From Promethearchaeota archaeon (GTDB lineage Archaea > Asgardarchaeota > Lokiarchaeia > Sigyniarchaeales > SOKP01): a DNA stretch of 19,141 nt. This document shows positions 1-19,141 of the stretch, one piece after another. Both the position numbers and the translations under genes were made by a program. The notes under the pieces were generated by a model. The model was not told where the DNA came from and did not search any database. It saw nothing but the letters and a program-made list of their open reading frames with translations. The stretch covers positions 1 through 19,141 of the forward strand of contig JABCSY010000077.1 in assembly GCA_018238625.1 (NCBI GenBank). Direction: 5' to 3'. Numbering within the stretch: position 1 is the first letter of the stretch; the number at the start of each line of letters is the position of its first letter.

Positions 1-292
1 CGCTGGAACCATTTCCTACAAAAACAGTATTTCTATTAGTTAATGTATCTTTGTCTCTCAATAGTTGATTTAGAACCGCTTTACGAACCTCAAGAGCTAT
101 CGGGTCGGGGTATTTTTGTAATAATTCTTTATTTTCTATAGCTAATTTTAAATCATCTAGTATTTCTTGGATTGGGGGGTATGCGTTTTCAGTTGAGTTT
201 AATTTTACCCAGCCATCTCCTTCCGGTTGTTCTTCTGGTTCATAAGCGCTATAATTTCGAAGATCTTCTCTAATTAACTTTTCTAATTCCAT
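1..292 (-). CDS. hisC: Histidinol-phosphate aminotransferase-like PLP enzyme (class I/II), N-terminal part; runs off the window edge
   Basis: Not in ORF track. Manual translation from ATG at 292: MELEKLIREDLRNYSAYEPEEQPEGDGWVKLNSTENAYPPIQEILDDLKLAIENKELLQKYPDPIALEVRKAVLNQLLRDKDTLTNRNTVFVGNGSS. Matches HisC motifs KLxxNENPYPP, YPDP and GNGSDE with some deviations. Confidence 0.8.
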   Translation of the reverse strand, partial: MELEKLIREDLRNYSAYEPEEQPEGDGWVKLNSTENAYPPIQEILDDLKLAIENKELLQKYPDPIALEVRKAVLNQLLRDKDTLTNRNTVFVGNGSS

Positions 293-536
293 CTCGATTA
301 CCTTTTTTTTAATAGACTATTTGGTAGCAATTTCTTAATAATTGAATATTTTATATAACTATGTTATAACATTTATTTTTTGTCTTCTAACCTCTCATTC
401 ACAGATTTTCTAGAGTCTTACTGTCCTTTAAATTATCTTTTTTTTTTTACAATTTATAAAAACAAATCAAAAAACTCAATTTTTAAAACTATTAATTTTA
501 TAATATTATAAATAACAATATTAAGTGGTTTTTAAA

Positions 537-1403: not shown

Positions 1404-1424
1404 TTCTTTTTTTTCTAATTTTTT
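1404..1424 (+). terminator. Probable archaeal oligo-T terminator
   Basis: T-rich tracts directly after the TAA of the gelsolin-like gene; T-runs are common in this AT-rich DNA. Confidence 0.4.
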
Positions 1425-1533
1425 ATATGTTGGAATTTAAATTTTAAGCTATTTTCTTTATTATTATTAAGAATAAGAGTTTCGATTCTTAGTGTTATAT
1501 TTATTATTTTTAAAAAAATAATTTAGTAAAATT

Positions 1534-3291: not shown

Positions 3292-3319
3292 ATCTTGATA
3301 AAACACAAAAAACTATTTT

Positions 3320-4696
3320 TTAAATATAAATCTGGAGCCCCTTTTCCTCTAATTTCTTTAAAAAGGATGGAGAATTCTTAAAATTGTTTTCTCCTAAATA
3401 TAGTTCTTCTAAAAGAGCAAGAGACGAGATTGATTTTGGAAGTATAGTTAGTTTATTTCTTGAAAGGTTTAAGATTTTTAAGTTTTTTAATTTTCCAATT
3501 GTTTCAGGGATAGTTTCTAATTTATTATCGCTTAAATTTAAGTTTTCTAAGGAAGCAAGTGATCCTATTGAGTGTGGGACGTCTACTAACTCATTTCTTT
3601 CAAGGTCTAACGATTTTAATGATAATAGGTGAGCTATTGAAGGAGGGAGAGTAGTTAATAAATTCCAACTTAAATTCAACGCTATTAAATATTTTAGAGA
3701 TGATAAAGAATCTGGAAAATAAGTTAATTTATTATCGTGAAGATTTAGAGTTTTAAGGTTTATTAAATTTCCAATGTTATTAGGTAATAGTGTTAGTTGG
3801 TTTAATCGTAAATTTAAATGCTCTAATAATTTTAACGAACAAATTGAGGTTGGAAGATCTTGAAGTTCATTCTGCCAAAGTGACAATTCTTTAAGTTTAG
3901 AAAGTAAACCTATACTATCAGGAATTTTATTTATATTATTTACATTTAAATTAAGATATTCTAACGAATTTAAAGAGTTAATCCACTCTGGAATTTCTAT
4001 TATTTGGTTGTATCTTAGAGTAAGCTTTTTAAGAGCTTTAAGGTGTTTTATTGAGGGAAATTTTGTTAACCCTTTAAATATAAAATCTAACTCCACAATT
4101 TTACAACGTTCAATAGTATACTTCAATCTCCAATAAGTCTTTTTTAAGTAAATCAAGGTGAAATAATTGATTAAAATGTCAGTTAATTCCATATGCGTAA
4201 ATAGTTTCGCACCCTTGGAAAAACTTAAAGTCTCAAAGCCGATTTTAAAATCTATATCATCGATTTGTTTTATCTCGTGGATCAAAATTAGTTTTGTAAG
4301 GCGTTCGTTTCTGTTTTCTAAGTTGCTAATTATAGATATTAATGAATTAAAAATTGTATACAAGCAAGTTTGAGATTCTTCGTGATGAAGAGCCCATCTT
4401 AGTGGGTTCAACGCTTTATCTTTAAAATTATACCCTAAAGTAAGAGCGGCTTCGTTTCTGATTTTTTCTTCTGAGTCCGAAATAAGTAAATTTTCAAAGA
4501 AACTAAAAATCTTCTCCTTCTTTACGCTAGTATTATCAAAATTATCCCCAATAGTTCTTAAAATTTGAAGGCTTTCGTAGCGATCTTTAACTTTTGTACT
4601 ATTTTCTATTAATGCGATTAGTTGTTTAACTGCCGATGATATATCGATTTTTTTTTTGTTAAATTCGTCAAATATCTTAGTTGGTGTGCGTCTCGT
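3320..4696 (-). CDS. Leucine-rich repeat protein with N-terminal HEAT-like helical domain (paralog 1); start extended beyond the ORF-track TTG at 4411
   Basis: About 10 regular 23-aa LRRs (LxxLxxLxLxxNxLxxLPxxI). The frame is open to 4708, and the extra 95 codons (TRRTPTKIFDEFNKKKIDISSAVKQLIALIENS...FFENLLISDSEEKIRNEAAL) align with the N-terminus of paralog 2. The proposed ACG start at 4696 is inferred. Confidence 0.85.
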   Translation of the reverse strand, partial: TRRTPTKIFDEFNKKKIDISSAVKQLIALIENSTKVKDRYESLQILRTIGDNFDNTSVKKEKIFSFFENLLISDSEEKIRNEAALTLGYNFKDKALNPLRWALHHEESQTCLYTIFNSLISIISNLENRNERLTKLILIHEIKQIDDIDFKIGFETLSFSKGAKLFTHMELTDILINYFTLIYLKKTYWRLKYTIERCKIVELDFIFKGLTKFPSIKHLKALKKLTLRYNQIIEIPEWINSLNSLEYLNLNVNNINKIPDSIGLLSKLKELSLWQNELQDLPTSICSLKLLEHLNLRLNQLTLLPNNIGNLINLKTLNLHDNKLTYFPDSLSSLKYLIALNLSWNLLTTLPPSIAHLLSLKSLDLERNELVDVPHSIGSLASLENLNLSDNKLETIPETIGKLKNLKILNLSRNKLTILPKSISSLALLEELYLGENNFKNSPSFLKKLEEKGLQIYI

Positions 4697-4705
4697 AATG
4701 TAAAT

Positions 4706-4710
4706 CCCTC
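4706..4710 (-). promoter_or_regulatory. Shine-Dalgarno-like GAGGG upstream of the proposed ACG/ATT start of LRR paralog 1
   Basis: Minus strand reads TAG-TT-GAGGG-ATTTACATT-ACG; 9-nt spacer to ACG. Confidence 0.5.
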
Positions 4711-4712
4711 AA

Positions 4713-6212
4713 CTATTTGTAAATTATTAATCCATTTTTTTCTAATTTATACAAAAAATCGGGTGTTTCTTCAATATTATTAAAATTTAAATCTAGAATC
4801 TTCAATGATTTAAGATTCTCAAGAGATTCGGGAAGTATTTTCAATTTATTCCCCCATAAACTCAATGTCTCAAGAGATTTAAGAGCTCCCAGGCAATCGG
4901 GTAGATTTTCGAAACGGTTCCAACTTAAATTTAAAACTTTTAAATTAATTAACGAGCTAAACGACTCAGGTAGAGTAGTTAAATTATTATTCCATAGAGT
5001 TAATTCTTTAAGCGTAGAAATCTTACCAATTGATTCAGGAAGTTCAATCAACTTATTATCAAATAATTGTAATATTTCTAATGATTGCAACGACCCAAAC
5101 CAAGAAGGAAGTGATGTCAATTTATTACCTCCCAAACCCAATTTTTTAAGAGATTTAAGAGGCTTTACCCATTTAGGAAGTCTTTCTATATTGTTTAATC
5201 CCAAATCTAATTGTTTAAGAGAAGTCATTCGCTTGAAAGAACCCTTCAATTTGCTTAGATCATTTCCGTGCAAATCTAAAACTTCTAACTTTGATATATT
5301 CTTTATTGTTTTCGGCAAAGAAGTTAATTCGTTCGCCCTTAAATCTAAATGTTTTAACGATTTTAAAGAGCCTATAGAAGGGGGTAGACTTTTAAGTTTA
5401 TTATATCTCAAATTCAACACATTTAAAGCTGTTAATAAACCAATAGAATGAGGAATTGATTTAATTTTATTATAACTCAAATCTAAGTGAATCATTGAAG
5501 ATAATAAGCCAATAGTTTTAGGTATCGTATTAAGTCTATTAAATTTTAAATCTAGAAATTCTAATGAAGATAAAAATTCCATAAAATCTGGAAATTTGTT
5601 TAAAATTGTCCATCCGAAAACGTGACTACTAACATCAGATAAATCTAATTCAAAAATTAGACCCTCTTTCACCTTAAAATTAATTTGACCAAATCTTTTT
5701 TCCAGATCGGATACAATAAAATAATTCTCGATAATACGTGAGAGTTCAAAACTCGAGAAACTTTCAATATCTCTTTTTTTGAATAAGAGATTTAAATTTT
5801 CAGTTATCTTCTCATTTCTTATTTTTTTAATTTTACTAATTAACAAAGATTTTGATTGAAGAGTATCAATTTTTCCTAATATCTTTGAGATTACTAACAA
5901 ACATTTTAGAGATTCCTCGTGTTTCAAAGCCCATCTCATTGGCTCAAAAGCATTATCTAAAAATAATTTTTCTATGACATTAATCGAATAAAATCTTATC
6001 GATTCATGAGAATCTGAAATTAGTAAATTTTCTAATAGTTTAAAAACATCATTAGATTTAGCATCAATCTGAGATAGTGTATTGATGCTTTCAATTCTTG
6101 TATCTAAATTATCGCTATTGTCTATAATCGATATTAATTGATTTATCGCAGAAATTTTATCTAATGTCTTGTTCTTGTAATTTTTATTAATTATTTTTGG
6201 AGATAATTCCAT
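4713..6212 (-). CDS. Leucine-rich repeat protein with N-terminal HEAT-like helical domain (paralog 2)
   Basis: 12 regular 23-aa LRRs; N-terminal helical segment LENLLISDSHESIR...EPMRWALKHEES; C-cap FLYKLEKNGLIIYK resembles FLKKLEEKGLQIYI of paralog 1. Confidence 0.92.
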   Translation of the reverse strand: MELSPKIINKNYKNKTLDKISAINQLISIIDNSDNLDTRIESINTLSQIDAKSNDVFKLLENLLISDSHESIRFYSINVIEKLFLDNAFEPMRWALKHEESLKCLLVISKILGKIDTLQSKSLLISKIKKIRNEKITENLNLLFKKRDIESFSSFELSRIIENYFIVSDLEKRFGQINFKVKEGLIFELDLSDVSSHVFGWTILNKFPDFMEFLSSLEFLDLKFNRLNTIPKTIGLLSSMIHLDLSYNKIKSIPHSIGLLTALNVLNLRYNKLKSLPPSIGSLKSLKHLDLRANELTSLPKTIKNISKLEVLDLHGNDLSKLKGSFKRMTSLKQLDLGLNNIERLPKWVKPLKSLKKLGLGGNKLTSLPSWFGSLQSLEILQLFDNKLIELPESIGKISTLKELTLWNNNLTTLPESFSSLINLKVLNLSWNRFENLPDCLGALKSLETLSLWGNKLKILPESLENLKSLKILDLNFNNIEETPDFLYKLEKNGLIIYK

Positions 6213-6306
6213 TAATTCTCGAAATTTGGTGTAATTATTTAAATTTTTTATTTTAATACATTAAATTTCTAATTTCATTTTTTATTAAAAAATAATTATT
6301 ATAGAT

Positions 6307-8211
6307 CTAAAAATATTTCTCTAAAGCTAGCGCTTTAATTTTACTTATTGTAGGGAGACCATTTTGTTTATCCCAACCTCGTTCGTCATAATAATCGTCT
6401 AGTAATTGATTGGCAATATCTTGAGTAATAATTACTTCTCCGTAGAAATCTTGGAATTTAAGTACATTTTCTCCAATTTTTAAGGGTTTAAACCATCCGC
6501 TAGGGAATTTATCGTCCTTTCGAGAAAAACCTTCTTTTAAATTCATTAACTTCAATAAATTCCAAGAACGTTCAGCTGATAGTCTTAATTCTTCTTGATG
6601 TAAATTGAATCCGGTAATTAAATTGTATAAATCGGTTACTAATTCTAAACTAAAAAATCTATTCATTTGAGCTCTAGCGCACAATCCTAGAGAGGTTAGT
6701 ACGGTGTACCAATCTTCAGAGTATCTGGTTAACCGTCCAACATTTACGCCCATTCCTTTTTTGGGAGGACTAAATATTCTAGGGAAAGCGGTTTCGGGAA
6801 TACCCATCCTATTAAAATGGCTTTTCATTTTATCCGGAGATCCTCCAGCGCCAACATAAGTCGGTGATCCACCCGAAGCTACATGAGCGCCTTTAGGGTT
6901 TACTACTTGTTCAAATTCCATTGTTCCTAATCGCAAAAACCTAGGTTCGAATATAATATCTAAACCTTTCACTGTAAGCATTTCTTTTGAAAAAGTTTTA
7001 TTTTCTCCGGCTAATTTTTTCCACCCATCTGCTAATATATCTCCAAATCCTTCTCTTTTTGCGATTATATCAATAAGGTGCTGAAAAGTCTTAAAATCTT
7101 GCTTCCACTCAATACCTAACTTTTCATTGGTGAGGATCCCTCGTTCATTCATTTTACTTATAAATTCGAACAGCGCTGTCATAGTTAATGAATCCAATCC
7201 ATATCTACTTATTAGATCAAACGCTTTTATTGCTTGGTCGTATGTATCTAGCCCATCAACGGTAAACATCATTAAGGGGTTAATTATTGAGGATGTGTAA
7301 TTAATCAAACCGCTATATTCTCCTTCACGTATTTCAAGAATATCTTTATCAGCCATAGGACAAGATGGACAAGCTATACGTCTTTTTTTCATTTTTTTTA
7401 GGTACATCCTATCGCTACATTGGCGAGCTTTTTTCTTTTGTCCTTTTGCGGTTAAGAACATGCCAACGGGCAAGCTTCTTAACATACCTAATTCAATCCA
7501 AGAATCCCTATGAGGATATTTGCGGATACGCTCAATCAGACTATTATACAGCTTATTAAATTTTTTTGGTTCTGCTATTGGAATCCCTTTTGTCCCTTGA
7601 GTCAAAATAGCTTTAAGGTTTTTAGACCCCATAATTGCAGCAAGTCCACCACGCCCTAAAGTTGAGGTTTTATCTATTAGCGTCATCGAAGATTTAACAA
7701 GATTTTCTCCCGCTTGACCAATAGCAATTACTCCACTTTCACCATGTTTCTTCTTCAAATAATTAGTTGTTTCAACAATATCTTTACCCCATATTACTTT
7801 AGCTTTAGTTAATTCAACATGATCGTCAGATATATGTAAATATACTGGTTTTTCTGATTTCCCAGTTACAATTATATGATCAAATCCCGCTTGCTTCAGG
7901 TTAAACGCAAAGCTCATACTTCCGCAAGAATTAGCTATGGCTCCGGTCGCTGGAAATCTTGAAATTGCAACGGTTCGAGAAGAACCAGGAACAATAGTTC
8001 CTACTAAAGGTCCAGTTCCAAATATTATTAAATTTTTTGATGAAAATGGATCCGTTAACGGTTTGAATCGATCAGCAAAAAGTTTACAATTCATTCCAAA
8101 TCCGCCAATGAACCTTTTAAGGTCTCTGACATCTTCTTTAATAATTGACACTTTATTTTCCGTTAAATCAATGTCAAGTATATTTCCAGTGTAACCAAAC
8201 CAATCCGTTAT
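6307..8211 (-). CDS. aor: Aldehyde:ferredoxin oxidoreductase family (tungstopterin) enzyme, divergent; start extended beyond the ORF-track GTG at 8151
   Basis: Motifs IFGTGPLVGT, LKQAGFDHIIVTGKSEKPVYL, IGQAGEN, GRGGLAAIMGSKNLKAI, SLGLC, YYDERGWD. The in-frame upstream sequence encodes the conserved N-terminal FGYTGNILDIDLT. The ATA/ACG start is inferred. Confidence 0.88.
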   Translation of the reverse strand: MTDWFGYTGNILDIDLTENKVSIIKEDVRDLKRFIGGFGMNCKLFADRFKPLTDPFSSKNLIIFGTGPLVGTIVPGSSRTVAISRFPATGAIANSCGSMSFAFNLKQAGFDHIIVTGKSEKPVYLHISDDHVELTKAKVIWGKDIVETTNYLKKKHGESGVIAIGQAGENLVKSSMTLIDKTSTLGRGGLAAIMGSKNLKAILTQGTKGIPIAEPKKFNKLYNSLIERIRKYPHRDSWIELGMLRSLPVGMFLTAKGQKKKARQCSDRMYLKKMKKRRIACPSCPMADKDILEIREGEYSGLINYTSSIINPLMMFTVDGLDTYDQAIKAFDLISRYGLDSLTMTALFEFISKMNERGILTNEKLGIEWKQDFKTFQHLIDIIAKREGFGDILADGWKKLAGENKTFSKEMLTVKGLDIIFEPRFLRLGTMEFEQVVNPKGAHVASGGSPTYVGAGGSPDKMKSHFNRMGIPETAFPRIFSPPKKGMGVNVGRLTRYSEDWYTVLTSLGLCARAQMNRFFSLELVTDLYNLITGFNLHQEELRLSAERSWNLLKLMNLKEGFSRKDDKFPSGWFKPLKIGENVLKFQDFYGEVIITQDIANQLLDDYYDERGWDKQNGLPTISKIKALALEKYF

Positions 8212-8453
8212 TCCTCACCCTCTTTGAGTTCTAAAGCTCCATACAGACAATAATTTACACATTGCCCGCAGTGAGTACATCCATCCAAGAACGAGATTTT
8301 TGGGATTAGTTCGTAGGCATCAAAAATTTGAATAAAAGCGTCAGTAGGGGAATATTTATTTTTATATATGGAGGAACAGATTAATTGACAGATTCTACAT
8401 CCTGTACATTTTTCCTCGTGTATAATTATCTCAAGTAATTTAGATTTTACCAA
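8208..8453 (-). CDS. 2x[4Fe-4S] ferredoxin-like protein coupled to aor
   Basis: CTGCRICQLIC and CTHCGQCVNYC motifs; 81 aa; TTG start; its stop overlaps the proposed aor start. Confidence 0.9.
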   Translation of the reverse strand: MVKSKLLEIIIHEEKCTGCRICQLICSSIYKNKYSPTDAFIQIFDAYELIPKISFLDGCTHCGQCVNYCLYGALELKEGEE

Positions 8454-8578
8454 AATAAATCAAATCTTTACTGTTCTTTTACTAACTTGTAAATTTTATT
8501 AGGTTCACTATACTTAATATGTTATAATTTGAGTTTTTAGTATATATAGCTTTTCAAGTATGATGTTAAAATAAAAAA

Positions 8579-10117
8579 TTATATCCTTTCTATCATCATA
8601 CCACCTAAGATGATAGGTCCACCAGTCGCATTATATATTTTCTCGGCTTTTTTTAATTTGTTTTGACTGCTAGAATGAATTTTAAAGATTAAATCTCCTT
8701 CCTTTATTCTTGCTCCTTGTTTTTTAAAAATCTCAACACCAGAATTTTTTGAATGGGGGCAACCAGTAGCTTTAGCTATACGGTTAATAATTGCGTTGTT
8801 TACTCCAGTTATATGCCCTGCTTTAATAGCAAAAAATTCTTTAGAATGGGGGCCTATTTTAATATCTTTGGGTTTTAGTTCTGGATTTCCACCCTGGACT
8901 TCGATTATTCTTTTCATTTTTTCATAAGCTTTACCAGAACGCAATATCTCTTTGGCTAAGCTCTGTCCCTTCCCTTTCTGAGCTTTTCCACCCATTTCAA
9001 GTATTATTCCCGCTAAATCGGTTGATTTCTCAATCAGAGAATTTGGACCTGCAGAATAATCCATAAGCAAAGTTAACGCTTCTTTAGCTTCTAATCCCGG
9101 GCCAATTGCGTGGCCAATTGGTTGATGGGCAAGAGTTAGGGCACACTCCGCTTCAATCCCCACATTTTTTGCAATTTCTTTAAATAAATAAGCAAACTGT
9201 TTCCCATTATCAGGAGTAGGAAATTTTGTTCCTTCGCCAACGGGTATATCTAATACGAGCTTTTTAACTCCAAGAGAAAGTTTTTTAGTGAGTATAGATG
9301 GAATCATAAGTCCTATTGGATCCATGTGGAGTGGGCGCTCAATTTCGATCAATATATTATCTGCAGGCGAAGTATTTAGAGCTCCACCCCATATAATGCA
9401 CGCTTTTTCTTTCGATACAATGCTTTTCAATTTTTCAGCATCAAAAGCAATAGGAGCCAGAACTTCCATAGAATCGGCAGTTCCAGAGGGAGAAGTTATA
9501 GCTCTTGTCGATGACTTTGGAATTGTTAGCCCAGCAGCTGCGACAATTGGAACAATGATAAGCGTAACCTTATTTCCTGGCACTCCACCTGTCGAATGTT
9601 TGTCATAAACTTCCGGTCCGAAGTCGAATAGCTCTCCACTTCTTGCTTCAGCATAAGTCAATGCTGTCATCTCTTCGTTATCCATGCCATTTATAGACAC
9701 CGCAGTTATAAATGCTGCTAAATCGATTCTTGATAAAGAACCAGAGATCGTATCTTGAATTATACTATTGATTTCTTCAGTTGTTAATTTAGCCCCTCTT
9801 ATTTTTTTCTGAATGTATTTAAAAGAATCAGGCGGATCTGCCGGTTTAACGGATATAATCATATTGTTAACTAAATCCTTTTTCTCCTTAAGGATATCTA
9901 AGAAAACTCCGATCTCTCCAGGGTGAACCAAAGAATTAGAATAATCAATTTGTAGTATTGCCACCCAATATTTATCTTCAAGAGATTTTGATTGAGGATT
10001 TTTTACGACAATACGTTCGCCGGCTTTCTGTCCTAATTCTTGAGCGTCTTTAATATTAAGGACAATAGCTTTGGTATTCCCAGTTTCGAAATTAATTTCT
10101 TTTACTTTGAATTTCAT
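8579..10117 (-). CDS. deoA: AMP phosphorylase (archaeal thymidine-phosphorylase family)
   Basis: DKHSTGGVPGNK, RAITSPSGTADSMEVLA, LVLDIPVGEGTK, QPIGHAIGPGLEAKEAL; N-terminal beta-barrel extension typical of AMP phosphorylases; 512 aa. Confidence 0.93.
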   Translation of the reverse strand: MKFKVKEINFETGNTKAIVLNIKDAQELGQKAGERIVVKNPQSKSLEDKYWVAILQIDYSNSLVHPGEIGVFLDILKEKKDLVNNMIISVKPADPPDSFKYIQKKIRGAKLTTEEINSIIQDTISGSLSRIDLAAFITAVSINGMDNEEMTALTYAEARSGELFDFGPEVYDKHSTGGVPGNKVTLIIVPIVAAAGLTIPKSSTRAITSPSGTADSMEVLAPIAFDAEKLKSIVSKEKACIIWGGALNTSPADNILIEIERPLHMDPIGLMIPSILTKKLSLGVKKLVLDIPVGEGTKFPTPDNGKQFAYLFKEIAKNVGIEAECALTLAHQPIGHAIGPGLEAKEALTLLMDYSAGPNSLIEKSTDLAGIILEMGGKAQKGKGQSLAKEILRSGKAYEKMKRIIEVQGGNPELKPKDIKIGPHSKEFFAIKAGHITGVNNAIINRIAKATGCPHSKNSGVEIFKKQGARIKEGDLIFKIHSSSQNKLKKAEKIYNATGGPIILGGMMIERI

Positions 10118-10266
10118 AATATCACAATTTTGTGTAATTAATTATTAATTAGAGAGCTTGATTAATTAAATTTAATTGAAAATTTTATAATTGTATTAGG
10201 TTTTTTCGATTATTTTATTTATTCATTTTAATAAAATTAATTAAAAACCATTGAATGATTTGAAAT

Positions 10267-11406
10267 ATGAATAAGTTCGAAAAAGCTCAAAAAGTACTCC
10301 ATGAACTGAAGAGCGATGGTTGGTTAATTGTTTGCAGCGAAGACAGCGATGTTAATTCTCGATTTCTTATAGGCGTTGAATCTCACGCTCGACACTACAT
10401 CTATGTGGCAAAAGACGGGAAGCATAAAGTCCTTGCCGTCGAAATGGAAGCACCTATGATCGAGCGTTCTTTAAAAAGCAAAGGAATTGATGTTGATGTA
10501 ATAAGCTATAGAACTCTAAAGGATTTAGTTTCATCGTTAAGTTCATTAATTAATAAACCACGTATAGCTCTGAATTTTGGAGAAAGTATTTTAAGCGCGG
10601 AAAGTACGGCATATGCGGATTATATTCGTGCTGGAGATTATTTTTCGTTGAAAAAGTTGGCTCCTCAAACGGAGTTCATTTCAGCAGCACCAATAATAGA
10701 TAATTTAAGGAGCGTTAAATCATCAGAAGAATTAAAGGATTTACGAAACACCTGTAAAGCAACTATGGAAATCTTAGAGACGATACCGGATTGGGTTAAA
10801 GTTGGTATTACGGAAAATGAAATCAAAGCAAAAATAGAATACGAATATATGAAGTTAGGAAAACCATCATTTGGAACGATTGTCGCAACTGGAGCTCATT
10901 CGGCCGATCCACACCACAATACCTCCAAGAAAAAAATTGAACAAGGAGTTTTATTGATAGATACTGGTTTGCAAATTGATGGGATGTGTTCTGACATAAC
11001 TTGGACATTTTGGGTCGGGAAACATCCTACGGAAGAATTTATTCGCGCGTATCACGCTCTTTATGAGTCGAAACAAGTGGCAAATAAATACTTTACTGAC
11101 GGTACCCCAAACAATATACCCGCCAAAAAATGTCGCGAATATTTATCAAAAGAGGGGTACGATCATGAAAAACTATTTTTTCATGGATTAGGACATTCGT
11201 TAGGTTTTGAAGCGCATGACATTGGGGGAAGGATAAGTTGGAAAATGCCTGACAAATATAAACTTAAAGAAAATATGGTATACACTAACGAACCCGGTTT
11301 ATACTGGATAGGTAAATGGGGGATTAGATTAGAAGACGATATAATAATCGGTAAAAATGAGTGCGAGCAAGTTACTGTCGTTCCAAAAGAACCAATTCAA
11401 ATATAA
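10267..11406 (+). CDS. M24 family Xaa-Pro aminopeptidase/prolidase
   Basis: Metal and active-site motifs PHH, DTG...SDITWT, HGLGHSLGFEAHD, TNEPGLY, GIRLEDD; N-terminal creatinase-like domain. Confidence 0.92.
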   Translation: MNKFEKAQKVLHELKSDGWLIVCSEDSDVNSRFLIGVESHARHYIYVAKDGKHKVLAVEMEAPMIERSLKSKGIDVDVISYRTLKDLVSSLSSLINKPRIALNFGESILSAESTAYADYIRAGDYFSLKKLAPQTEFISAAPIIDNLRSVKSSEELKDLRNTCKATMEILETIPDWVKVGITENEIKAKIEYEYMKLGKPSFGTIVATGAHSADPHHNTSKKKIEQGVLLIDTGLQIDGMCSDITWTFWVGKHPTEEFIRAYHALYESKQVANKYFTDGTPNNIPAKKCREYLSKEGYDHEKLFFHGLGHSLGFEAHDIGGRISWKMPDKYKLKENMVYTNEPGLYWIGKWGIRLEDDIIIGKNECEQVTVVPKEPIQI

Positions 11407-11420
11407 TTGAAAGAAAAGCG

Positions 11421-12728
11421 TTATAATTTTATAGAGAATGGAAAATCTTTTGTTTCTTCTATTTTGTTTTGATCAGAGTCCATAAATTTTAAATTTATTT
11501 TAATTATGTAGTCTCCTGCTTCAATAGGTTTAAGACTAATTTCCCATTTTAAATCTTCATTCGTCTTCAACGAAAAGATTTGTTTATTAGTAGTACCCCT
11601 CATAACTTTCAAATCTTCGGGAAATTCGACATCAATCTTTACATCTAACGCCTCCCCTTTACCATTATTCTCAATCACAATCTCCAAGGGAAAAGTTTTA
11701 CCAATGAGAGGAGGTCTTAAATTCTTAATCGATGTGTTTAAAGTAGCAGGAGGAGAAATTAGATGCGGTTTTATCGATTGAGTTTCATAAATAAATATCA
11801 AATTGTTGTTTAATTCACATGTTAAAAACATAGGACCTATTCTTGGATTATCGACTTGAAAATGTGGTTTAAATGTGAACTCTAATGGTGTTTGTTTTCC
11901 AACTTCAATTTGGAAGGGAGTTTTTGATTTTTTACTGATAGCCAAATTATCTGAGAGATTTACCACTATTTTTGTTATATTGAATTCGTCTAAATCATAA
12001 TGTAAAAAAGAGTCTTTTAAAATTTGTAAAAGGTTTGAAGTATCAAAACCCAATTTCAAATTTATAATTTCTTTAGTCGTGTATGTTTCTTTATCTAATT
12101 TAAATGTAATGTTTATTAAAAGCTTAAATTTTGTTAATAGTAATACGTTCTTTAACAATTTCAATTCAGCATCTCTAAATTTATAGCGTCCAACATTGTT
12201 TTTAATTTTATCGAGGTATTTTGGATCGTTATCTCTTAGCGCTATTGTTAGTTCAGAAACGAGCTTTATTAGAGAATGTTCTTTAAAATATTCATTATCA
12301 ACTCTTTTTTTAGTTCTTTTTATAAAATCTAAACCCTCATCAGGAGAACCTTTAGCAAACGAGCATAAATACGATAATACCGAAAATATAACAAAATTTG
12401 AATCCCTATCGCTGTTATTTTTCAGTTTAGGAATGTAGTTAAAGATCTCTTTATAAATTTGGTTAGCTTCTAAAAACTTGCTATTGTGTAGACAAACCTC
12501 TCCAGATTGTCTCAATAACTCTATACTAGTTTCAAATTTCTCTAACATTATAAACGATTTTGCACCATTAATGAAACAGACCTTTGCTTTTTCAAATTCA
12601 TTTAGCTTAATATACGAATTTCCCGCTACATGGTATTTATTACCAGCTTTTTTAAATTGTCTAGCCTTAAACAGTTGCTCAGCTCTTAAAAATTGATTTT
12701 CGGCAACTAATCTTTGATTTTTTCCCAT
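11421..12728 (-). CDS. Hypothetical protein: N-terminal TPR/SNAP-like helical repeats plus two C-terminal Ig-like beta-sandwich domains
   Basis: Helical repeats AEQLFKARQFKKAGNKYHVAGNSY / FEKAKVCFINGAKSF / FLEANQIYKE; C-terminal IGKTFPLEIVIENNGKGEALDVKI...LKPIEAGDYIIKINL has a CARDB/Ig-like pattern. Confidence 0.65.
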   Translation of the reverse strand: MGKNQRLVAENQFLRAEQLFKARQFKKAGNKYHVAGNSYIKLNEFEKAKVCFINGAKSFIMLEKFETSIELLRQSGEVCLHNSKFLEANQIYKEIFNYIPKLKNNSDRDSNFVIFSVLSYLCSFAKGSPDEGLDFIKRTKKRVDNEYFKEHSLIKLVSELTIALRDNDPKYLDKIKNNVGRYKFRDAELKLLKNVLLLTKFKLLINITFKLDKETYTTKEIINLKLGFDTSNLLQILKDSFLHYDLDEFNITKIVVNLSDNLAISKKSKTPFQIEVGKQTPLEFTFKPHFQVDNPRIGPMFLTCELNNNLIFIYETQSIKPHLISPPATLNTSIKNLRPPLIGKTFPLEIVIENNGKGEALDVKIDVEFPEDLKVMRGTTNKQIFSLKTNEDLKWEISLKPIEAGDYIIKINLKFMDSDQNKIEETKDFPFSIKL

Positions 12729-12890
12729 TTTTTCAACGCTTTCTTCAAGAATTTAAAAAATCACTATTATTATTATAAATTCATTGTGAAATTAAAAATT
12801 AAGTGAATAGTCCGAATTTTCTGTTATAATCTTACAAAGAATAAACCTTTAAAAAAATAAAAAAATAAAAAAAAGATTTTTAATTATGGA

Positions 12891-13511
12891 TTAAAAAGCC
12901 ATTAGGATAAGGATAAATGCCACCATAATAATTGTTCCGCTAACGGGCGTCACCCACGTAAATACTACAAAACCAATTATTAGAACGACCCACCATGCAT
13001 AGGACACCTTTACATCTATTTTATTTTGCAAAGTTAAAATTAATATTATTGCAAAAACGAATCCAACAATAGAAAGGGCTATACTTGTAGGTGAACCAGA
13101 AAGGAATAGCATTACAGATTCATATATTAGATAACATGCTCCAATTAAAGCGACAATTTTCGATTCTGCGTAAGTTTTCTTCTGGCTTAAAAATTCTAGT
13201 AATGCTGCTATTAAAACTAAAATGCCTCCAAGATAAGAGGATCCAGCAGCAAATTCAAATAATATTAAGATAAGCCCGATAATTAACAATACCCACCATA
13301 AAAAAGGAATGTTCACTTTCTTAAAATCCACGATTTCTAATGATATGAACATCACTGCTGCAAAGATTAGTCCTATTATTCCATACATTATATTCAATGG
13401 GATTGCTGTGAAAAAATATCCTATACTTACTTGAATAACGACTAACGCACCAATAAGAGCTACAACTTTAGATGCAGATATTCCTACTTTAGAAGTTTCT
13501 CCCATATTCAT
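12891..13511 (-). CDS. Multi-pass membrane protein built from two internal ~4-TM repeats
   Basis: Strongly hydrophobic; repeated SK[VI]VALIGA ... I[IV]G[LF][IV]FA ... WWV[LV]LIIG motifs. Confidence 0.85.
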   Translation of the reverse strand: MNMGETSKVGISASKVVALIGALVVIQVSIGYFFTAIPLNIMYGIIGLIFAAVMFISLEIVDFKKVNIPFLWWVLLIIGLILILFEFAAGSSYLGGILVLIAALLEFLSQKKTYAESKIVALIGACYLIYESVMLFLSGSPTSIALSIVGFVFAIILILTLQNKIDVKVSYAWWVVLIIGFVVFTWVTPVSGTIIMVAFILILMAF

Positions 13512-13693
13512 TCACTTATTTGTTTTTTAAAATTGTTTTTTTTTTTTGAATTTCAAACAAAATTGAAATTATAGTTTAACTAGAAAGATGTGTTTTTATA
13601 CTTTGTCTTACAATTTATAAGTTTAATAGTTTTAAACTTCAAATTCTATTAATTTAAAATAAATAATAAAAATTATTATAGAAATAATAATTT

Positions 13694-13760
13694 CCGAAAC
13701 CATAGCTAATGGTTCGTCGCCTTGCGACTCATTTTTTCTCGCAAGAGTCATTCCTTCGGT
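13694..13760 (-). promoter_or_regulatory. Eukaryote-like SECIS element in the 3' UTR of hdrA-mvhD
   Basis: mRNA: ACCGAAGGA-AUGAC-UCUUGCGA-GAAAAAAUGAG-UCGCAAGG-CGAC-GAACCAUUAGCUAUGGUUUCGG. It has an AUGAN/NGAN tandem GA core, an 8-bp stem, an unpaired A6 in the loop and a closing CCGAA/UUCGG helix. It is a GC-rich island in AT-rich intergenic DNA, right after a gene with in-frame TGAs. Confidence 0.85.
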
Positions 13761-14234
13761 TTAATTTTTCTTTTGTTCTACTTTTGAATCTTTTTTTTTC
13801 ATTTCTGAACGCAGAGATTCTTTAATTGGATTGCTGCCTAAATTTTCGATTATTTCTGAGATTCTGGTGACTTCTTCTTGAAATCTTTGACCTTCAGCTG
13901 CGGTACAATGGAACATTTGGATTCTATCAGGTGAAATACCCGTAGTTTTTAAAATTTCTCTCGCATACTTTACATTTTTTGCTGCTACTAAATTACCCGT
14001 TTCATAATCGCATTCTCCTTCGTATCATCCAGCAACAATTACTCCATCGGCACCCTTTCCAATCGCACGCATCATAAGTGAAGGCGTTACGCGTCCAGTA
14101 CAGTTGATTCTTATAGGTCTAATCGTAGAAGGGTATTGAGCGCGTATCGTGCCAGCCATATCTCCAGCACCATAACCTCATTTCCAGCACATAAATGTTA
14201 AAATCTTTATTTGGTCTTTATCGTTTGTCGCCAC
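13761..14234 (-). CDS. mvhD: Hydrogenase iron-sulfur subunit MvhD/VhuD, selenoprotein (Sec19, Sec70), 157 aa
   Basis: Missing from ORF track. GTG start after GAGGTG: MATNDKDQIKILTFMCWK(U)GYGAGDMAGTIRAQYPSTIRPIRINCTGRVTPSLMMRAIGKGADGVIVAG(U)YEGECDYETGNLVAAKNVKYAREILKTTGISPDRIQMFHCTAAEGQRFQEEV...KKN*. TGAs at 14178-14180 and 14025-14027 correspond to the Cys of CxxC and GCxxGxC. Confidence 0.93.
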
Positions 14235-14239
14235 TTTTT

Positions 14240-14245
14240 ACACCT
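14240..14245 (-). promoter_or_regulatory. Shine-Dalgarno GAGGTG for mvhD
   Basis: Minus strand TAG-A-GAGGTG-TAAAAA-GTG in the 13-nt hdrA/mvhD gap. Confidence 0.65.
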
Positions 14246-14247
14246 CT

Positions 14248-16212
14248 CTATATCTCTTCTAAAATAGCATCGATTTGTTTTTCATATTGAGGTTCACGGT
14301 AGTATCTTAGCGTAATCGCCTCAGAAGGACAATTGGCTAAGCACGAACCGCATCCACGGCATAATATCTCGTTTACATCTGCTCCGTCAGCTAAAGTCTT
14401 AATTGCATCGTAAGAACAATTTAATTCACACAGTCCACACTTCGCGCATCTATCTTTGTCTACAGTAGCTCGAATTAATAAAATCCTATATTTATCCTTT
14501 CCCATCAATCGTGCTAAAGAAGAAGCTGCCGCTCTCCCTTGAGCTATTGATTCAGCTACAGATTTAGGACCTTGAGAAGCTCCTGCAAGTACTATACCCG
14601 GAATTTTGGTGTCAATTGGATTTAAACGAGAGTGAAATTCCTTGAAGAATCCATCTTGGCTCGTTTCAAGCTTTAAGATTCTACCAATTTTTTCTACTCC
14701 ATTTGCGGGCACCATAGCGCACGATAGAATTACCATGTCGTACTCAAGTTCTTTTAATCTTGTGCTACTAAGCGTGTTTTGGATAATTATTTTAAGATTT
14801 TGAGTTTCTGGGTCTTCTTGAATTTTTGAGACATTAGTTCTAATGTACCTAATACCTTCTTTTCGTGATGCGGTGTAATACTCTTCGTAATCTTTTCCAG
14901 CGGCTCGAATATCTATGTAGGCAACAGAGATTTCCATTTCAGGATAATGTTGTTTTATGAGTTTAGAATTTTTAATTGAAACCATACAACATACTCCGGC
15001 ACTGCAATAAGTATTCATGTTTAAATCTCTCGACCCGACACATTGAATAAATAGTATTTTTTCAGGTTTTTTTCCGTCAGAAGGGCGAACTAAATGTCCA
15101 ACGGTTGGTCCGTTAGGCGCAAGAATCCTTTCTAACTTCATTTGGGTTATTACATTTGGATAGACATTGTAACCTAAATAACCCGTTTCTGGTTCGTACT
15201 CGTCCCATCCTGTAGCTACTACTACTGAGCCAACTTTAACATCTACAATTTCATCTTCTTGATCAAAATCAATTGCTTTAACTTCACAAACGCCTTTACA
15301 CAATTCACATTTAATGCAACGCGTCATATCAATTTGGGCTATCGAAGGTACTGCTTGAGCAAACGAAAGGTAAATTGCTTTTCTCGGGTTCATTCCTTCG
15401 TTAAATTCGTCGTATCCGTAAGCGGGACACACTTCAAAGCAAGCACCGCAGCCATTGCAGTCGTTATTGACATACCTTGCCCTTTTACGGATTTTAACAT
15501 CGAAGTTTCCAACGAATCCAGAAATCTCTTCCACTTCACTATAAGTGTATATGTTTAACCTTGGAGTTCTTGCTGCTTCGAGCATAACAGGGCCAAGGAT
15601 TCATATACTACAATCGTCAGTGGGAAATGTTCGATCTAACATAGCCATTTTTCCACCAGTTGTCGGATTTTTCTCAACCAAATGGACTTCAAAACCTTCT
15701 TCAGCCAAATCTATTCCTGCTGATAGTCCTGCTACGCCACCACCAATAATTAAGGCTTTCTTAGTGATATCTACCTCTTTGATTAGGATTTTTTCTAAAA
15801 CACTAGCCCTAGCAACGCCAGACCGAATAAGATCCTCAGCGGTTCTTTGTGCCCCTGGTTTATCTTGTTTGTGGACATAACTCGCGTGTTCTCGTATGTT
15901 CACGAATTCCAAGTAAGAAGGGTCCAAACCCATAGATTCTAGTACGCTTTTAAAAACAGGTTCGTGAGTTATTGGGGTGCAAGACGCCATAACTAACCTA
16001 TTAGCATTGTTCTCGATCATTTTTTCTTTGATGAATTCAGCACCTGGTTGAGTACACATGGATATATAGTCTAAAGCTTCAACTACATTTGGAAGCGTTT
16101 TTGAATATTCTGATAGAGCTTTTGTATCGATTATTTCGGCAATATTAATTCCTCATTGGCATACTGCCACGAAGATTCTCGGTTCATCATTTGTAATTTC
16201 AGTTTCTACCAT
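14248..16212 (-). CDS. hdrA: Heterodisulfide reductase subunit A (FAD, Fe-S), selenoprotein (Sec20, Sec204), 654 aa
   Basis: One frame joins the ORF-track pieces 15601..16059 and 14248..15585 plus a missed N-terminus: MVETEITNDEPRIFVAVCQ(U)GINIAEIID...ASCTPITHE...IIGGGVAG...DRTFPTDDCSI(U)ILGPVMLEAA...CNGCGACFEVC...QCVGSRD...YCSAGVCC...CRGCGSCLANC. TGAs at 16153-16155 and 15601-15603 are at conserved Cys sites. Confidence 0.95.
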
Positions 16213-16426
16213 TGCATAAATCACTTTTGTTCCTTTTTGTTAGTTTCCTCCAATAATTTGTAATAATAGTTGTTATGAATTTAAAATATTTTATTCTAAT
16301 TTAAAATAACTGATTAAAAAAATTAACTTTAATTCAAAAATCTTTTATGTGTTTTTTAAACAATTGAATAAAAAAAGTTCGATTAAATCAAATTTAAATA
16401 GAACTTCTACGGTTATTGAGATAGAG

Positions 16427-16846
16427 ATGTTATTAAATTTATTACAAATGGGAGGTCCTATAGATAAGGAAACTTTGTCTCTAATCCTTATGGCAGCTTT
16501 TGCGGGTGGAGATATCTTATTATTAAAACTCGGGTTAAAAATAACCAAAGCTCGTGAAAGAACAAGAATGAAATGGGTCGCAGTAAGTTTTCTAATTCAA
16601 TTTGGAGTAATTTTTATTATTAGTTCTCCCATGTTTTTGTTAGGATTCGCAGGGAAGTTCGATGGAGACCCTGAAGTAGTCATCCCGATAATAATTCTTT
16701 GTACTTTTATTGACTTAAACGTAATTAATGTCATACATCAAGTTGGCCTTAAACGTTCGTTAATCGTAGTATCGATAATACTCCTTCCAATCGTCTTTAT
16801 TATGGCTAATATGGGATCTATTCTCTCAGGTCCCACGGGATTTTAA
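16427..16846 (+). CDS. Hypothetical membrane protein (~4 TM)
   Basis: Four hydrophobic segments. ATG at 16427 (after GAGATAGAG) is preferred to the ORF-track start at 16349, whose extension looks like AT-rich intergenic DNA. Confidence 0.7.
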   Translation: MLLNLLQMGGPIDKETLSLILMAAFAGGDILLLKLGLKITKARERTRMKWVAVSFLIQFGVIFIISSPMFLLGFAGKFDGDPEVVIPIIILCTFIDLNVINVIHQVGLKRSLIVVSIILLPIVFIMANMGSILSGPTGF

Positions 16847-16856
16847 TAATTTATTA

Positions 16857-17777
16857 TCACAAATTAATTTCTTTGTTAATTTTTTTGTTCATATCAATGA
16901 TTTCGTCTCTCGCAGCTTCACCATACTTGTCAGGAGAGAATAGTTCTTTTTTATTGTATGAATATATTATCCCTCTTGACGAATTTACAATTCCCCCCAA
17001 TCCATTATCGCTAAAACCATGTTTAATTTCTTTCGCTTGAGCCCCTTGAGCTCCAAACCCCGGTATTAACACATAGGAGTTTTTGACTATCTTCCTTATT
17101 GCTTTTAATTCTTGTGGGTAAGTCGCTCCTACTACTACTCCCAAATTATGAAAATTAGAAATTTGTTCAAGGTTTTGTCCCCACTTAGAAACTAGTTTTG
17201 CCATGTGGATATAATTTCTTTCCAGTGTTATATGGTCTACTATGACTTCAACGTCAGAGTCGGGAACATTAAGAATTCTAGCGCTAAAGATATCTTGAAA
17301 ATCTTTACTACTAGGGTTTGAAGTTTTTACTAGGATAAATAGACCTTTCTCTTTATAACTTAAAAAGGGTTTAATTCCATCAAATCCAAGGTACGCGTTT
17401 ATTGTACAAGCGTCAGCATTATAAACTTTAAACGTGGAATACGCGTACGCTTCCGAAGTTGAGCCAATATCGTTTCGCTTTGAATCTAAAATGACAAGTA
17501 AATCTTTTTTATGGGCGTATTTTATCGTTTCTTTCAACGCTGCTAACGCCTCGTATTTCTCGTAAAATGCGATCTGCGGTTTTACAACGGGAATTAAATC
17601 AGATGTGTGATCAATAAGATTTTTGTTAAATTCTAGAATTATTTTACTCGGATCTTTTAATTCATCTATTAAGTACTTAGGAATTTCGCCTTGCTTATCC
17701 ATTCTGGGATCAAGTCCCATACAAACTACGCTTTTTTTATCCTTTATAGACTGAATTAATCGTTCAATAAAATGCAT
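16857..17777 (-). CDS. pyrF: Orotidine-5'-phosphate decarboxylase (subfamily 2)
   Basis: CMGLDP, KPQIAFYE, catalytic DSKRNDIGST (DxKxxDIxxT), LVKTSNP, VVGATYP, LIPGFGAQG, NSSRGIIY. Confidence 0.96.
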   Translation of the reverse strand: MHFIERLIQSIKDKKSVVCMGLDPRMDKQGEIPKYLIDELKDPSKIILEFNKNLIDHTSDLIPVVKPQIAFYEKYEALAALKETIKYAHKKDLLVILDSKRNDIGSTSEAYAYSTFKVYNADACTINAYLGFDGIKPFLSYKEKGLFILVKTSNPSSKDFQDIFSARILNVPDSDVEVIVDHITLERNYIHMAKLVSKWGQNLEQISNFHNLGVVVGATYPQELKAIRKIVKNSYVLIPGFGAQGAQAKEIKHGFSDNGLGGIVNSSRGIIYSYNKKELFSPDKYGEAARDEIIDMNKKINKEINL

Positions 17778-17911
17778 ATCTAATTTCAGTGATTTTTTTA
17801 AATAATTGGCACATATCTAAAATCTAAATATATATAGGAAGTGGTTTCTAAAAAATTTAGAGCATAAAATAAAAAATAGAATTAATTAATTATTTTTAAA
17901 ATAGATTTAAC

Positions 17912-18880
17912 TTAATCTGTTTCTTCAATATCATCTGCCGCTCTTCTTTCATGGATTTCTTTCTTAATCTTTTTTATTGTTATCCCTTTAAGTTTAATGA
18001 ATTGATGAATGAATATACCCGTGGATATAACAATTCCAACTAAGTAAAACACTTGAATAGTCCAGTAAAATGGCTCGATAGATGTAAAGAATACAAGTTT
18101 GAAGGTGTAAGCCAAACATGTGATTGTTGTGATCCAAATCGTAGAGATAAGTAAAGCTATTCTTTCATAAAACTTAGGCTCGCCTTTATCAAAAACAATT
18201 ATTTTTAGCCAAAAGATTACGCAGACAAATGTTATAGGTGTAAAGACAAGGGAACCTATGGCAATCGGGATAAGCAGATACACTGCAAATTGATTTCTCC
18301 AGATGTTTAAAACTTCTCCTAATGTCATCTGATCTTGAATTTGAACTTTCGCATACTTTCCTCTCCAACTAAAGTATCCTTTCTTCATTTTTCTTCCTAT
18401 TTTTTTTGTTCCTCTCTTCACACGCTTAATTATTCCCGTGTCTACAGCTTCCTGAAATTCTTCTCTAATTAAGGGAACTATATATAATGATAGCATTAAA
18501 GAGATAATACCGTAAAGAAATAATAGAAGATCAAACCAATATTGTATACCTGTTTTAGGTGTTACGGGAGGTAAGCTTGAAATTATGCTATAAATAGCGT
18601 ATCCTACTAGAATTCCTGGGACTATCACCTGAATAATTATAAGAACCTGAACGTCTTTTTTACTAAATTTTTCAGTAAAACGATTTAGAATCAACAAAAT
18701 ACCATTTGCTACAGTTAATATCAAACCAAAACCAGAAAGAAGCTTCATTGTCCAAAAGAAAATTAAGAAAGTAATATTCAACTCAATAAATCCAAAGATC
18801 AATTGAAGAATCATAAAAATAGTAGTTGCAACTAGTCCAATTATATAAAAGATGTCAAATTTTTTAAGATTTAGATTCAT
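17912..18880 (-). CDS. Hypothetical multi-pass membrane protein (~7-8 TM) with a Lys/Arg-rich loop
   Basis: 322-aa ORF with repeated hydrophobic helices and the basic loop IIKRVKRGTKKIGRKMKKGYFSWRGK. Confidence 0.8.
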   Translation of the reverse strand: MNLNLKKFDIFYIIGLVATTIFMILQLIFGFIELNITFLIFFWTMKLLSGFGLILTVANGILLILNRFTEKFSKKDVQVLIIIQVIVPGILVGYAIYSIISSLPPVTPKTGIQYWFDLLLFLYGIISLMLSLYIVPLIREEFQEAVDTGIIKRVKRGTKKIGRKMKKGYFSWRGKYAKVQIQDQMTLGEVLNIWRNQFAVYLLIPIAIGSLVFTPITFVCVIFWLKIIVFDKGEPKFYERIALLISTIWITTITCLAYTFKLVFFTSIEPFYWTIQVFYLVGIVISTGIFIHQFIKLKGITIKKIKKEIHERRAADDIEETD

Positions 18881-19059
18881 AAATAAAATAAATTACTTGA
18901 AATCTTAAAAATATTCGTGTTTTCAGACTTTATGTAATATCATTCAAAAAATGCTATTGAAAGGCAGCTTGAAAACTATTCAAAGCTCTTGAAAGACATG
19001 AGTAAGCGGGAACACGCAAATAAAAAAACTTTTTTAACTTCTAAAAATATCAGAGAAAT

Positions 19060-19140
19060 TTAAATTTGGTTAATTATCTCTTTCAAAATCTCTTCATTGA
19101 AAGATCCAATTGTAATTCCTTTATTAACGATTAATTCCCC
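19060..19140 (-). CDS. 3' end of an unidentified gene entering from beyond the window
   Basis: Open minus frame GELIVNKGITIGSFNEEILKEIINQI followed by TAA (19060-19062); too short to assign a function. Confidence 0.55.
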   Translation of the reverse strand, partial: GELIVNKGITIGSFNEEILKEIINQI

Positions 19141-19141
19141 A

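Follow-up and report, generated by a model that had tools for sequence, protein, structure and literature searches.

Tandem hdrA-vhuD (hdrA-frhD) gene pairs in which UGA codons would specify selenocysteine (Sec) have been described in Lokiarchaeota (Mariotti 2016, PMC4989117), and the same pair is described in a survey of hundreds of Asgard metagenome-assembled genomes (MAGs; Huang 2024, PMC11227280). The present analysis concerns such a pair from a Lokiarchaeia Asgard archaeon. It lies in a stretch of 19,141 nucleotides (contig JABCSY010000077.1 of assembly GCA_018238625.1, positions 1 to 19,141; hereafter the window), and its four internal UGA codons are, in our judgement, very probably decoded as Sec within a two-gene unit.

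The RNA signal of the published pairs, a selenocysteine insertion sequence (SECIS) element named lokiSECIS, is given in the cited passages as AUGA, a 9-bp stem, an 11-nt loop with initial adenines and a final AG, and then GA; the same passages know of no SBP2 in Lokiarchaeota (PMC4989117). In HdrA proteins, the N-terminal and thioredoxin-reductase domains are described as binding one cluster each, and every ferredoxin domain as binding two (PMC12054007). In M. maripaludis HdrA, a selenylsulfide made by Sec197 and a cysteine is reported to lie between cluster A3 and flavin adenine dinucleotide (FAD; PMC13518236).

Reading frames, homologues and conservation of the UGA codons

Both genes lie on the minus strand (Table 1), with a spacer of 13 nt between the TAG of hdrA and the GTG of vhuD. 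The hexamer before vhuD resembles a Shine-Dalgarno sequence and would presumably act as one. When TGA is read as Sec (U), neither frame contains a frameshift, a TAA or a TAG, and U19 and U70 of VhuD stand 51 codons apart. Open reading frame (ORF) calling under translation table 11 breaks the two genes into four pieces of 152, 445, 44 and 51 amino acids (aa); Sec is likewise said to break hdrA gene calls (PMC12054007). A first-pass annotation of the window had described one 654-aa HdrA and a 157-aa MvhD interrupted only by four TGAs, free of frameshifts and of internal TAA or TAG, and its coordinates, lengths and sequence contexts were all confirmed, both frames reading through to the terminal TAG and TAA. 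Its span was drawn from 13694, which lies 67 nt past the vhuD stop, and thereby takes in, without comment, both the SECIS and a conserved 3' block.

Table 1. Features of the hdrA-vhuD locus, in window positions, and the tRNA-Sec gene elsewhere in the genome
Feature	Position	Strand	Description
hdrA	14248..16212	-	HdrA-type flavin/iron-sulfur subunit, 654 aa; ATG start; stop TAG 14250-14248; 2 in-frame UGA
HdrA Sec20 (UGA)	16153..16155	-	context VCQ-U-GINI; C-Q-U-G within the N-terminal Fe-S domain
HdrA Sec204 (UGA)	15601..15603	-	context DCSI-U-ILGP; C-S-I-U, canonical HdrA Sec site
GAGGTG, Shine-Dalgarno-like	14241..14246	-	read from the sequence; 6 nt before the vhuD GTG
vhuD/mvhD	13761..14234	-	FlpD-family iron-sulfur subunit, 157 aa; start GTG 14234; stop TAA 13763-13761; 2 in-frame TGA
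VhuD Sec19 (UGA)	14178..14180	-	context MCWK-U-GY; C-W-K-U-G-Y
VhuD Sec70 (UGA)	14025..14027	-	context VAG-U-YEGEC; A-G-U-Y-E-G-E-C
lokiSECIS	13717..13751	-	AUGA 13751-48; GA 13718-17; 10 nt after the vhuD stop
lokiSECIS stem	13747-39 / 13727-19	-	CUCUUGCGA / UCGCAAGGC; 8 standard pairs and a core-proximal C-C
lokiSECIS loop	13738-28	-	GAAAAAAUGAG; 11 nt, A-rich, ending AG
Conserved 3' block	13694..13716	-	C-N-AACCAU-loop-AUGGUUUCGG; second hairpin directly after the SECIS
tRNA-Sec(UCA)	C107:14173-14328 (locus L021)	+	adjoins the SepSecS gene; 3.2 kb from the SelB-like gene

The in-frame TGAs go beyond chance, since no internal TGA occurs in any of the window's 12 other ORFs that were checked, and all four sites are kept as TGA in relatives. 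TGA is otherwise used as a stop codon in this genome, where it ends 198 of 1745 long open frames, and in the window it also ends a pyrF-like gene.

The first protein aligns over residues 9-651 with HdrA of the Protein Data Bank (PDB) entry 5odc (5odc_A, E 3.6e-199) and over its full length with that of M. maripaludis (9sfi_A, E 1.4e-191), and the second matches M. maripaludis VhuD (9sfi_K, E 1.5e-34) and the MvhD of 5odc (E 3.3e-30). In Pfam, the first protein carries Fer4 and FAD-binding domains, and the second belongs to FlpD (PF02662, E 8.8e-42, 142.4 bits, above the family cut-off of 22.3). The whole HdrA domain layout is present, with an N-terminal Fe-S domain, an FAD thioredoxin-reductase domain with its own cluster, and inserted and C-terminal ferredoxin domains of the 2x[4Fe-4S] type. 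Scores against the curated NCBIfam equivalogs are lower than their cut-offs throughout. The models for the HdrA of the coenzyme B-coenzyme M (CoB-CoM) reductase (NF040770, NF041778 and NF041891) give the first protein 769.8 against 1100 (HdrA2, its best NCBIfam match), 592 against 1400 and 542.5 against 1300 bits, and the VhuD model NF045873 gives the second 149.2 against 215 bits. A CoB-CoM substrate is not asserted for this reason; judged by similarity, the proteins are best named HdrA-like and VhuD/MvhD-like, and the name of CoB-CoM reductase should not be given to the first of them.

The residues aligned with U20 and U204 of HdrA are cysteines in 5odc_A (VCHCG and DCSIC), and the MvhD of that complex also has cysteine at the aligned sites, which bears out the earlier statement that these positions are cysteine in canonical HdrA and MvhD. 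Alignment of the readthrough translations with homologues, which had been proposed as a check, gave a further result. U204 falls on X (Sec) in 9sfi_A, in the context DDCAMX and at the site corresponding to the Sec197 described for M. maripaludis (PMC13518236), U19 and U70 both fall on X (a non-standard residue, Sec) in 9sfi_K, and U20 falls on a cysteine of 9sfi_A. Three of the four UGA sites thus match Sec in the solved M. maripaludis HdrA and VhuD structures.

Conservation was followed in a same-genus set of 20 loci (the window and 19 relatives, 81-95% protein identity), one of which yielded no hdrA and four of which yielded no vhuD through misses of the motif filter or the end of the locus. 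With the window included, U20 and U204 are TGA in 19/19 hdrA orthologues and U19 and U70 are TGA in 16/16 vhuD orthologues; in four of the 19 hdrA genes, the Cys53 column is TGA as well. A wider set comprised 81 loci, namely the window and the best 80 of 201 public relatives, and is biased toward Sec-type genes. Here U204 is TGA in 77/77 and U20 in 75/77 hdrA genes, the other two having Cys, while U19 and U70 of vhuD are TGA in 69/73 and 70/73. Rarer HdrA sites are found at columns 53 (4), 78 (2) and 599 (1), so that UGA in the 77 HdrA loci is confined to five columns (20, 53, 78, 204 and 599), which match the five possible Sec positions reported for HdrA (Mariotti 2016, PMC4989117). The closest public loci are MAGs of Loki-type Asgard archaea (Promethearchaeota/Promethearchaeia).

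In comparison with relatives, synonymous changes dominate downstream of each UGA. In hdrA, 1324 synonymous and 393 non-synonymous codon changes were counted between the UGAs and 2971 and 1217 after U204; in vhuD, the counts are 354 and 25 between the UGAs and 304 and 184 after U70. Purifying selection therefore appears to continue past every UGA. These data bear directly on the idea that the genes are pseudogenes or that the TGAs are assembly or sequencing errors. The four fragments called under table 11 would suit such an idea, as would the state of the assembly (4.29 Mb, 32% G+C, 201 contigs, with estimates of 97.9% completeness and 7.59% contamination). Against it stand the retention of the TGAs in all orthologues at this protein distance, the strong synonymous excess, the absence of any frameshift, TAA or TAG, and DNA contigs from other sequencing runs, which are identical at all four TGAs in run X2 (possibly the source sample) and at two in run X5. 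The orthologue conservation, the synonymous excess and the identical contigs effectively refute decay or error, and we give it almost no weight.

The lokiSECIS and its flanking RNA

The element behind vhuD reads AUGA-CUCUUGCGA-GAAAAAAUGAG-UCGCAAGGC-GA and agrees point by point with the published description of the lokiSECIS. It is found at the orthologous position in 16 of the 20 same-genus loci (of the remaining four, two stop short of it and two are not matched by the pattern), and among these 16 loci five of the nine stem pairs show compensatory double changes. All four UGAs lie upstream of it, at distances of 276, 429, 1852 and 2404 nt. The first-pass annotation, whose reading of the UGAs as Sec is supported, had overlooked this element (13751..13717), which is the key to the mechanism.

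In the mechanism favoured here, hdrA and vhuD would be translated from one mRNA, and the single 3' SECIS would serve all four UGAs, across the cistron boundary, by bringing to them the Sec-specific elongation factor loaded with Sec-tRNA(Sec). The stop codon of hdrA, UAG, would escape recoding. By a rule stated in the cited passages, a UGA stop at the end of hdrA would itself be recoded (PMC4989117), and the UAG found here fits the shared-SECIS model for that reason.

The hdrA UGAs might instead be served by another signal, either inside one of the two coding sequences (hdrA or vhuD) or carried by a different transcript, leaving the SECIS behind vhuD unshared. Sharing is deduced from the absence of another element, and action over 2.4 kb past a stop codon would have to be assumed. 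Moreover, a relaxed scan of 13600-16400 (minus strand) returned, besides this SECIS, one weak GUGA..AA match inside hdrA at 15287, downstream of both hdrA UGAs. This stem-loop, however, is AU-rich and mismatched, its loop is not A-rich, and the coding sequence around it is conserved, whereas the element conserved in 16 loci is the one behind vhuD. In all pairs of Mariotti 2016 the lokiSECIS is given as solely behind vhuD, and the hdrA examined here ends in TAG, as the model in the cited passages demands (PMC4989117). A separate signal for hdrA is thus improbable, and sharing of the SECIS behind vhuD by both genes remains the preferred explanation.

The conserved 3' block follows this SECIS directly. 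Its UUCGG end is able to pair with a conserved CCGAA (13759-13755) just upstream of the AUGA, and the single-sequence fold of the SECIS region is a three-way junction with this CCGAA/UUCGG helix. The block is near-invariant in the 16 orthologous loci and shows no covariation, because its bases do not vary, and the fold is therefore unproven. RNAalifold did not predict the closing helix. Among the five SECIS regions of the genome itself, a second hairpin was observed right after the SECIS in four (those of vhuD, prxL, a small ORF and vhuU), and single-sequence folds (z -1.3 to -2.3) give the closing helix in three and a weak one in a fourth. The shared SECIS may be no more than the upper arm of a larger, conserved RNA structure that also includes the closing helix CCGAA/UUCGG and the second hairpin. 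If true, this larger RNA could let one signal act across 2.4 kb and a cistron boundary.

Selenocysteine machinery and genome context

What appears to be the full archaeal Sec set is encoded in the genome, namely tRNA-Sec, a PSTK-like protein, SepSecS, a SelB/EFSec-like protein and two Sec-containing SelD proteins; a search for this machinery had been named as a check of the Sec reading. SepSecS (contig C107:14407-15708) scores 479.9 bits (cut-off 224.85), and two selD genes in tandem, with a single TGA in each, are also above the cut-off. The PSTK-like protein scores 145 bits, the best family match for that protein, and the SelB-like protein 237.8 bits, with EF-Tu next at 148.9. In the tRNA-Sec gene, the anticodon loop is CUUCAAA, the acceptor stem has 9 bp, the discriminator base is G, and the T loop contains an insert of 31 nt. 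An apparent second insert of about 33 nt (about 14191-14223) was observed in the D arm, and the acceptor stem GGCCCCCGG/CUGGGGGCC, a perfect 9 bp, joins the tRNA-Sec body only when both inserts are removed. ARAGORN calls tRNA-SeC(tca) after in-silico removal of the T-loop insert, either alone or together with the putative D-arm insert; with both removed, the call is returned in 487 of 840 boundary combinations.

Over the whole genome, ARAGORN returned no tRNA-SeC with intron mode on or off, and only 12 and 19 tRNAs in all. This low count in a 98%-complete genome suggests that many of its tRNAs bear introns. In intron mode, one 'tRNA-Pyl(cta)' and one 'tRNA-Stop(tta)' were also called, both of which may be artefacts. 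Three sub-threshold Rfam matches to tRNA-Sec elsewhere in the genome were set aside, being tRNA-Arg, tRNA-Gly and tRNA-Leu by ARAGORN.

The machinery also bears on whether the UGAs are read without Sec-tRNA, by near-cognate Cys or Trp read-through or a reassigned stop, to give full-length selenium-free proteins. Cys-type HdrA and VhuD paralogues occur in the same genome, so that sulfur versions evidently work. Yet TGA is a regular stop here, the in-frame TGAs are restricted to Cys/Sec columns, a SECIS and the Sec machinery are present, and the corresponding sites of the solved M. maripaludis structures hold Sec. Reading without Sec-tRNA is accordingly most improbable. Decoding of all four UGAs as Sec, as first proposed from the window, is favoured by the conserved TGAs, their placement in Cys/Sec columns, the covarying SECIS and the machinery together.

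Several points nevertheless weigh against this reading. Sec insertion is deduced from nucleotide data alone, and one SECIS would have to serve hdrA over the cistron boundary. Contigs from two metatranscriptome runs of one study span both genes and their junction, and no difference at a TGA site occurs among the 40 of 160 differences listed; they derive from related strains (90-99% alike) and may contain DNA, and so show neither transcription nor a single mRNA. The stem pairing of 94% is partly circular, because the loci were chosen by a filter of at least 8/9 pairs, and the compensatory changes alone are independent of the filter. A simple lokiSECIS pattern has seven matches genome-wide, compared with 8, 2 and 3 in shuffled genomes. 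The evidence for the SECIS therefore consists of its position and its covariation. Taken by itself, the SECIS has a weak fold z-score (-1.10), and no Rfam family matches the window at E <= 1, so that there is no match to SECIS_1. As to the machinery, the PSTK-like and SelB-like scores are below the curated NCBIfam cut-offs (290.5 and 242.25, respectively), the tRNA-Sec scores no more than 28 bits (E 0.14) with the Rfam model RF01852, whose cut-off is 47, and ARAGORN recognises it only once the T-loop insert has been removed computationally. The contamination estimate given above also counts here.

Further selenoprotein loci were seen in the genome. A second hdrA-vhuD pair (C119:2526-4837, minus strand) carries 4+2 TGAs in frame; its SECIS has a loop of 12 nt and an AUGA that includes the stop codon of vhuD. 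Contig ends divide a third pair into an N-terminal hdrA fragment with two TGAs (C26:5-1207, minus strand) and the 3' end of vhuD with its SECIS (C200:1-170, plus strand). Several Cys-only hdrA/mvhD paralogues are located elsewhere. A small vhuU ORF on C95 (L132:347-520, minus strand; motif FDCULSCAAH) directly follows genes for a 438-aa [NiFe] large subunit and a 438-aa VhuG-like protein; its stop is the UGA within the AUGA of its own SECIS, which has an AA-type core, and the same arrangement is published for VhuU.1 (PMC4989117). The 12-nt-loop SECIS elements on C119 and C95 were missed by the strict lokiSECIS pattern. A peroxiredoxin-like selenoprotein of the published PrxL family (C88:about 12200-12660, plus strand; L137) has the motif NWUSHC, followed by a lokiSECIS.

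A candidate small selenoprotein is encoded by a 57-aa ORF (C7:5139-5309, plus strand; L135:840-1013), with an N-terminal membrane helix, an in-frame TGA in an invariant GG(G)-U-x(1-3)-C motif and a lokiSECIS 17 nt after the stop (L135:1028-1062). The gene downstream of it is, from the look of its sequence, presumably a TrmB-like regulator. All of the 9/9 inspected loci retain the TGA together with a SECIS whose stem covaries, and a profile of the ORF matches 35 of 41 genus genomes, nearly all with one TGA, with weaker matches in sister genera. No Pfam family was matched. Its identification as VhuU was rejected, since VhuU sits on C95. Among the selenoprotein families that the cited parts of PMC4989117, PMC11227280 and PMC13188914 name for Asgard archaea, the ORF does not appear.

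Within the window, no hdrBC or hydrogenase genes flank hdrA-vhuD; CCG-domain proteins and a vhuG-vhuA-vhuU cluster are encoded elsewhere in the genome. On the same strand, tandem leucine-rich-repeat proteins are encoded at 3320-4411 and 4713-6212 (Pfam LRR_8, E 1e-30 and 9e-40), with genes for an ATP-dependent DNA ligase, an aldehyde:ferredoxin oxidoreductase and a family-3 glycosyl transferase (thymidine/AMP phosphorylase-like) as neighbours. This region is ordinary context and has no link to the selenoprotein pair.

Probable selenium at the cofactors and comparison with known systems

HdrA would be a flavin-based electron-bifurcating subunit and VhuD its [2Fe-2S] electron-input adaptor. The first-pass annotation placed several of the four Sec residues at Fe-S ligand positions, which is plausible for U20 and for at least one Sec of VhuD and fails for U204. 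The cited parts of PMC6019823 and PMC12054007 name the domains and clusters and not the Fe-S ligands, and the assignment made here relies on counting. In HdrA, the columns with invariant Cys/Sec form groups of four (18, 20, 53 and 78), two (201 and 204), eight, four and eight. U204 is taken not to be a cluster ligand because its M. maripaludis counterpart forms a Cys-Sec selenylsulfide beside FAD; by this analogy, Cys201 and Sec204 are a redox pair and would act as a selenylsulfide relay beside the flavin. When these two are set aside, 24 invariant Cys/Sec residues remain (4+4+8+8), and six clusters need 24. As the N-terminal domain has exactly four of them, U20 probably supplies one ligand, out of four, to the [4Fe-4S] cluster there. 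In the same way, M. maripaludis VhuD offers only three Cys and two Sec in residues 6-133 for a four-ligand [2Fe-2S] cluster, and at least one VhuD Sec is probably a ligand.

A stronger joint proposal would be that Sec20 is a direct selenolate ligand of the [4Fe-4S] cluster, that at least one VhuD Sec ligates the [2Fe-2S] cluster, and that the SECIS belongs to a larger RNA. It is put forward tentatively, with rather more doubt than confidence. If true, it would mean naturally selenium-ligated iron-sulfur clusters inside an electron-bifurcating enzyme. With regard to mechanism, the pair adds a further well-supported case of one 3' SECIS apparently serving several UGAs in two cistrons, and with regard to evolution, the Loki-type SECIS has been proposed as a link from archaeal to eukaryotic Sec decoding. 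For annotation, the lesson is that table-11 calling breaks both genes.

The best structural relative of HdrA is found in the HdrABC-MvhAGD complex of M. thermolithotrophicus (Methanothermococcus; 5odc), which has the same domain order and all cluster cysteines. It differs in having Cys at all four positions that are UGA-encoded here, and in that hdrBC and mvhAG do not adjoin the present pair. M. maripaludis HdrA and VhuD are closer in their selenium, with Sec opposite U204, U19 and U70 in the alignments and Cys at the Sec20 position. M. maripaludis is, however, a methanogen with an archaeal-type SECIS and the substrate CoM-S-S-CoB, whereas the present pair belongs to a non-methanogen and has a eukaryote-like SECIS. 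That element resembles the eukaryotic SECIS core in its working but lies outside the Rfam SECIS_1 model. It shares with the eukaryotic kink-turn element (AUGA..GA) the AUGA before and the GA after the stem, the initial loop adenines and the 3' untranslated location; the eukaryotic stem is much longer.

HdrA and VhuD had rightly been named as known selenoprotein families of Methanococcales and Lokiarchaeota, with which the M. maripaludis structures (9sfi) and the cited passages of PMC4989117 and PMC11227280 agree. The word 'hidden', in the sense of new, does not apply, as these sources published the pair in 2016 and 2024. The apparent D-arm insert of tRNA-Sec and the 3' hairpin with its closing helix (13694-13716) go unmentioned in the passages cited from the published Loki descriptions.

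In all else the published Loki pair is the closest counterpart. There too, hdrA lies directly upstream of vhuD on one strand with a very short spacer, HdrA is a multi-Sec protein that includes a site near residue 200, and the two Sec of VhuD are separated by about 50 codons. One lokiSECIS with an 11-nt A-rich loop ending in AG likewise follows just behind vhuD, and, both there and here, no second SECIS is found near hdrA, which ends in UAA or UAG. The published genome also has the 31-nt T-loop insert in its tRNA-Sec and carries EFSec and tRNA-Sec on one contig, as does this one. Nothing essential differs, the core-proximal stem position being a C-C mismatch here. To summarize, the Loki hdrA-vhuD selenoprotein pair with a shared lokiSECIS is real and already known, and for the Loki lineage such a pair is ordinary.

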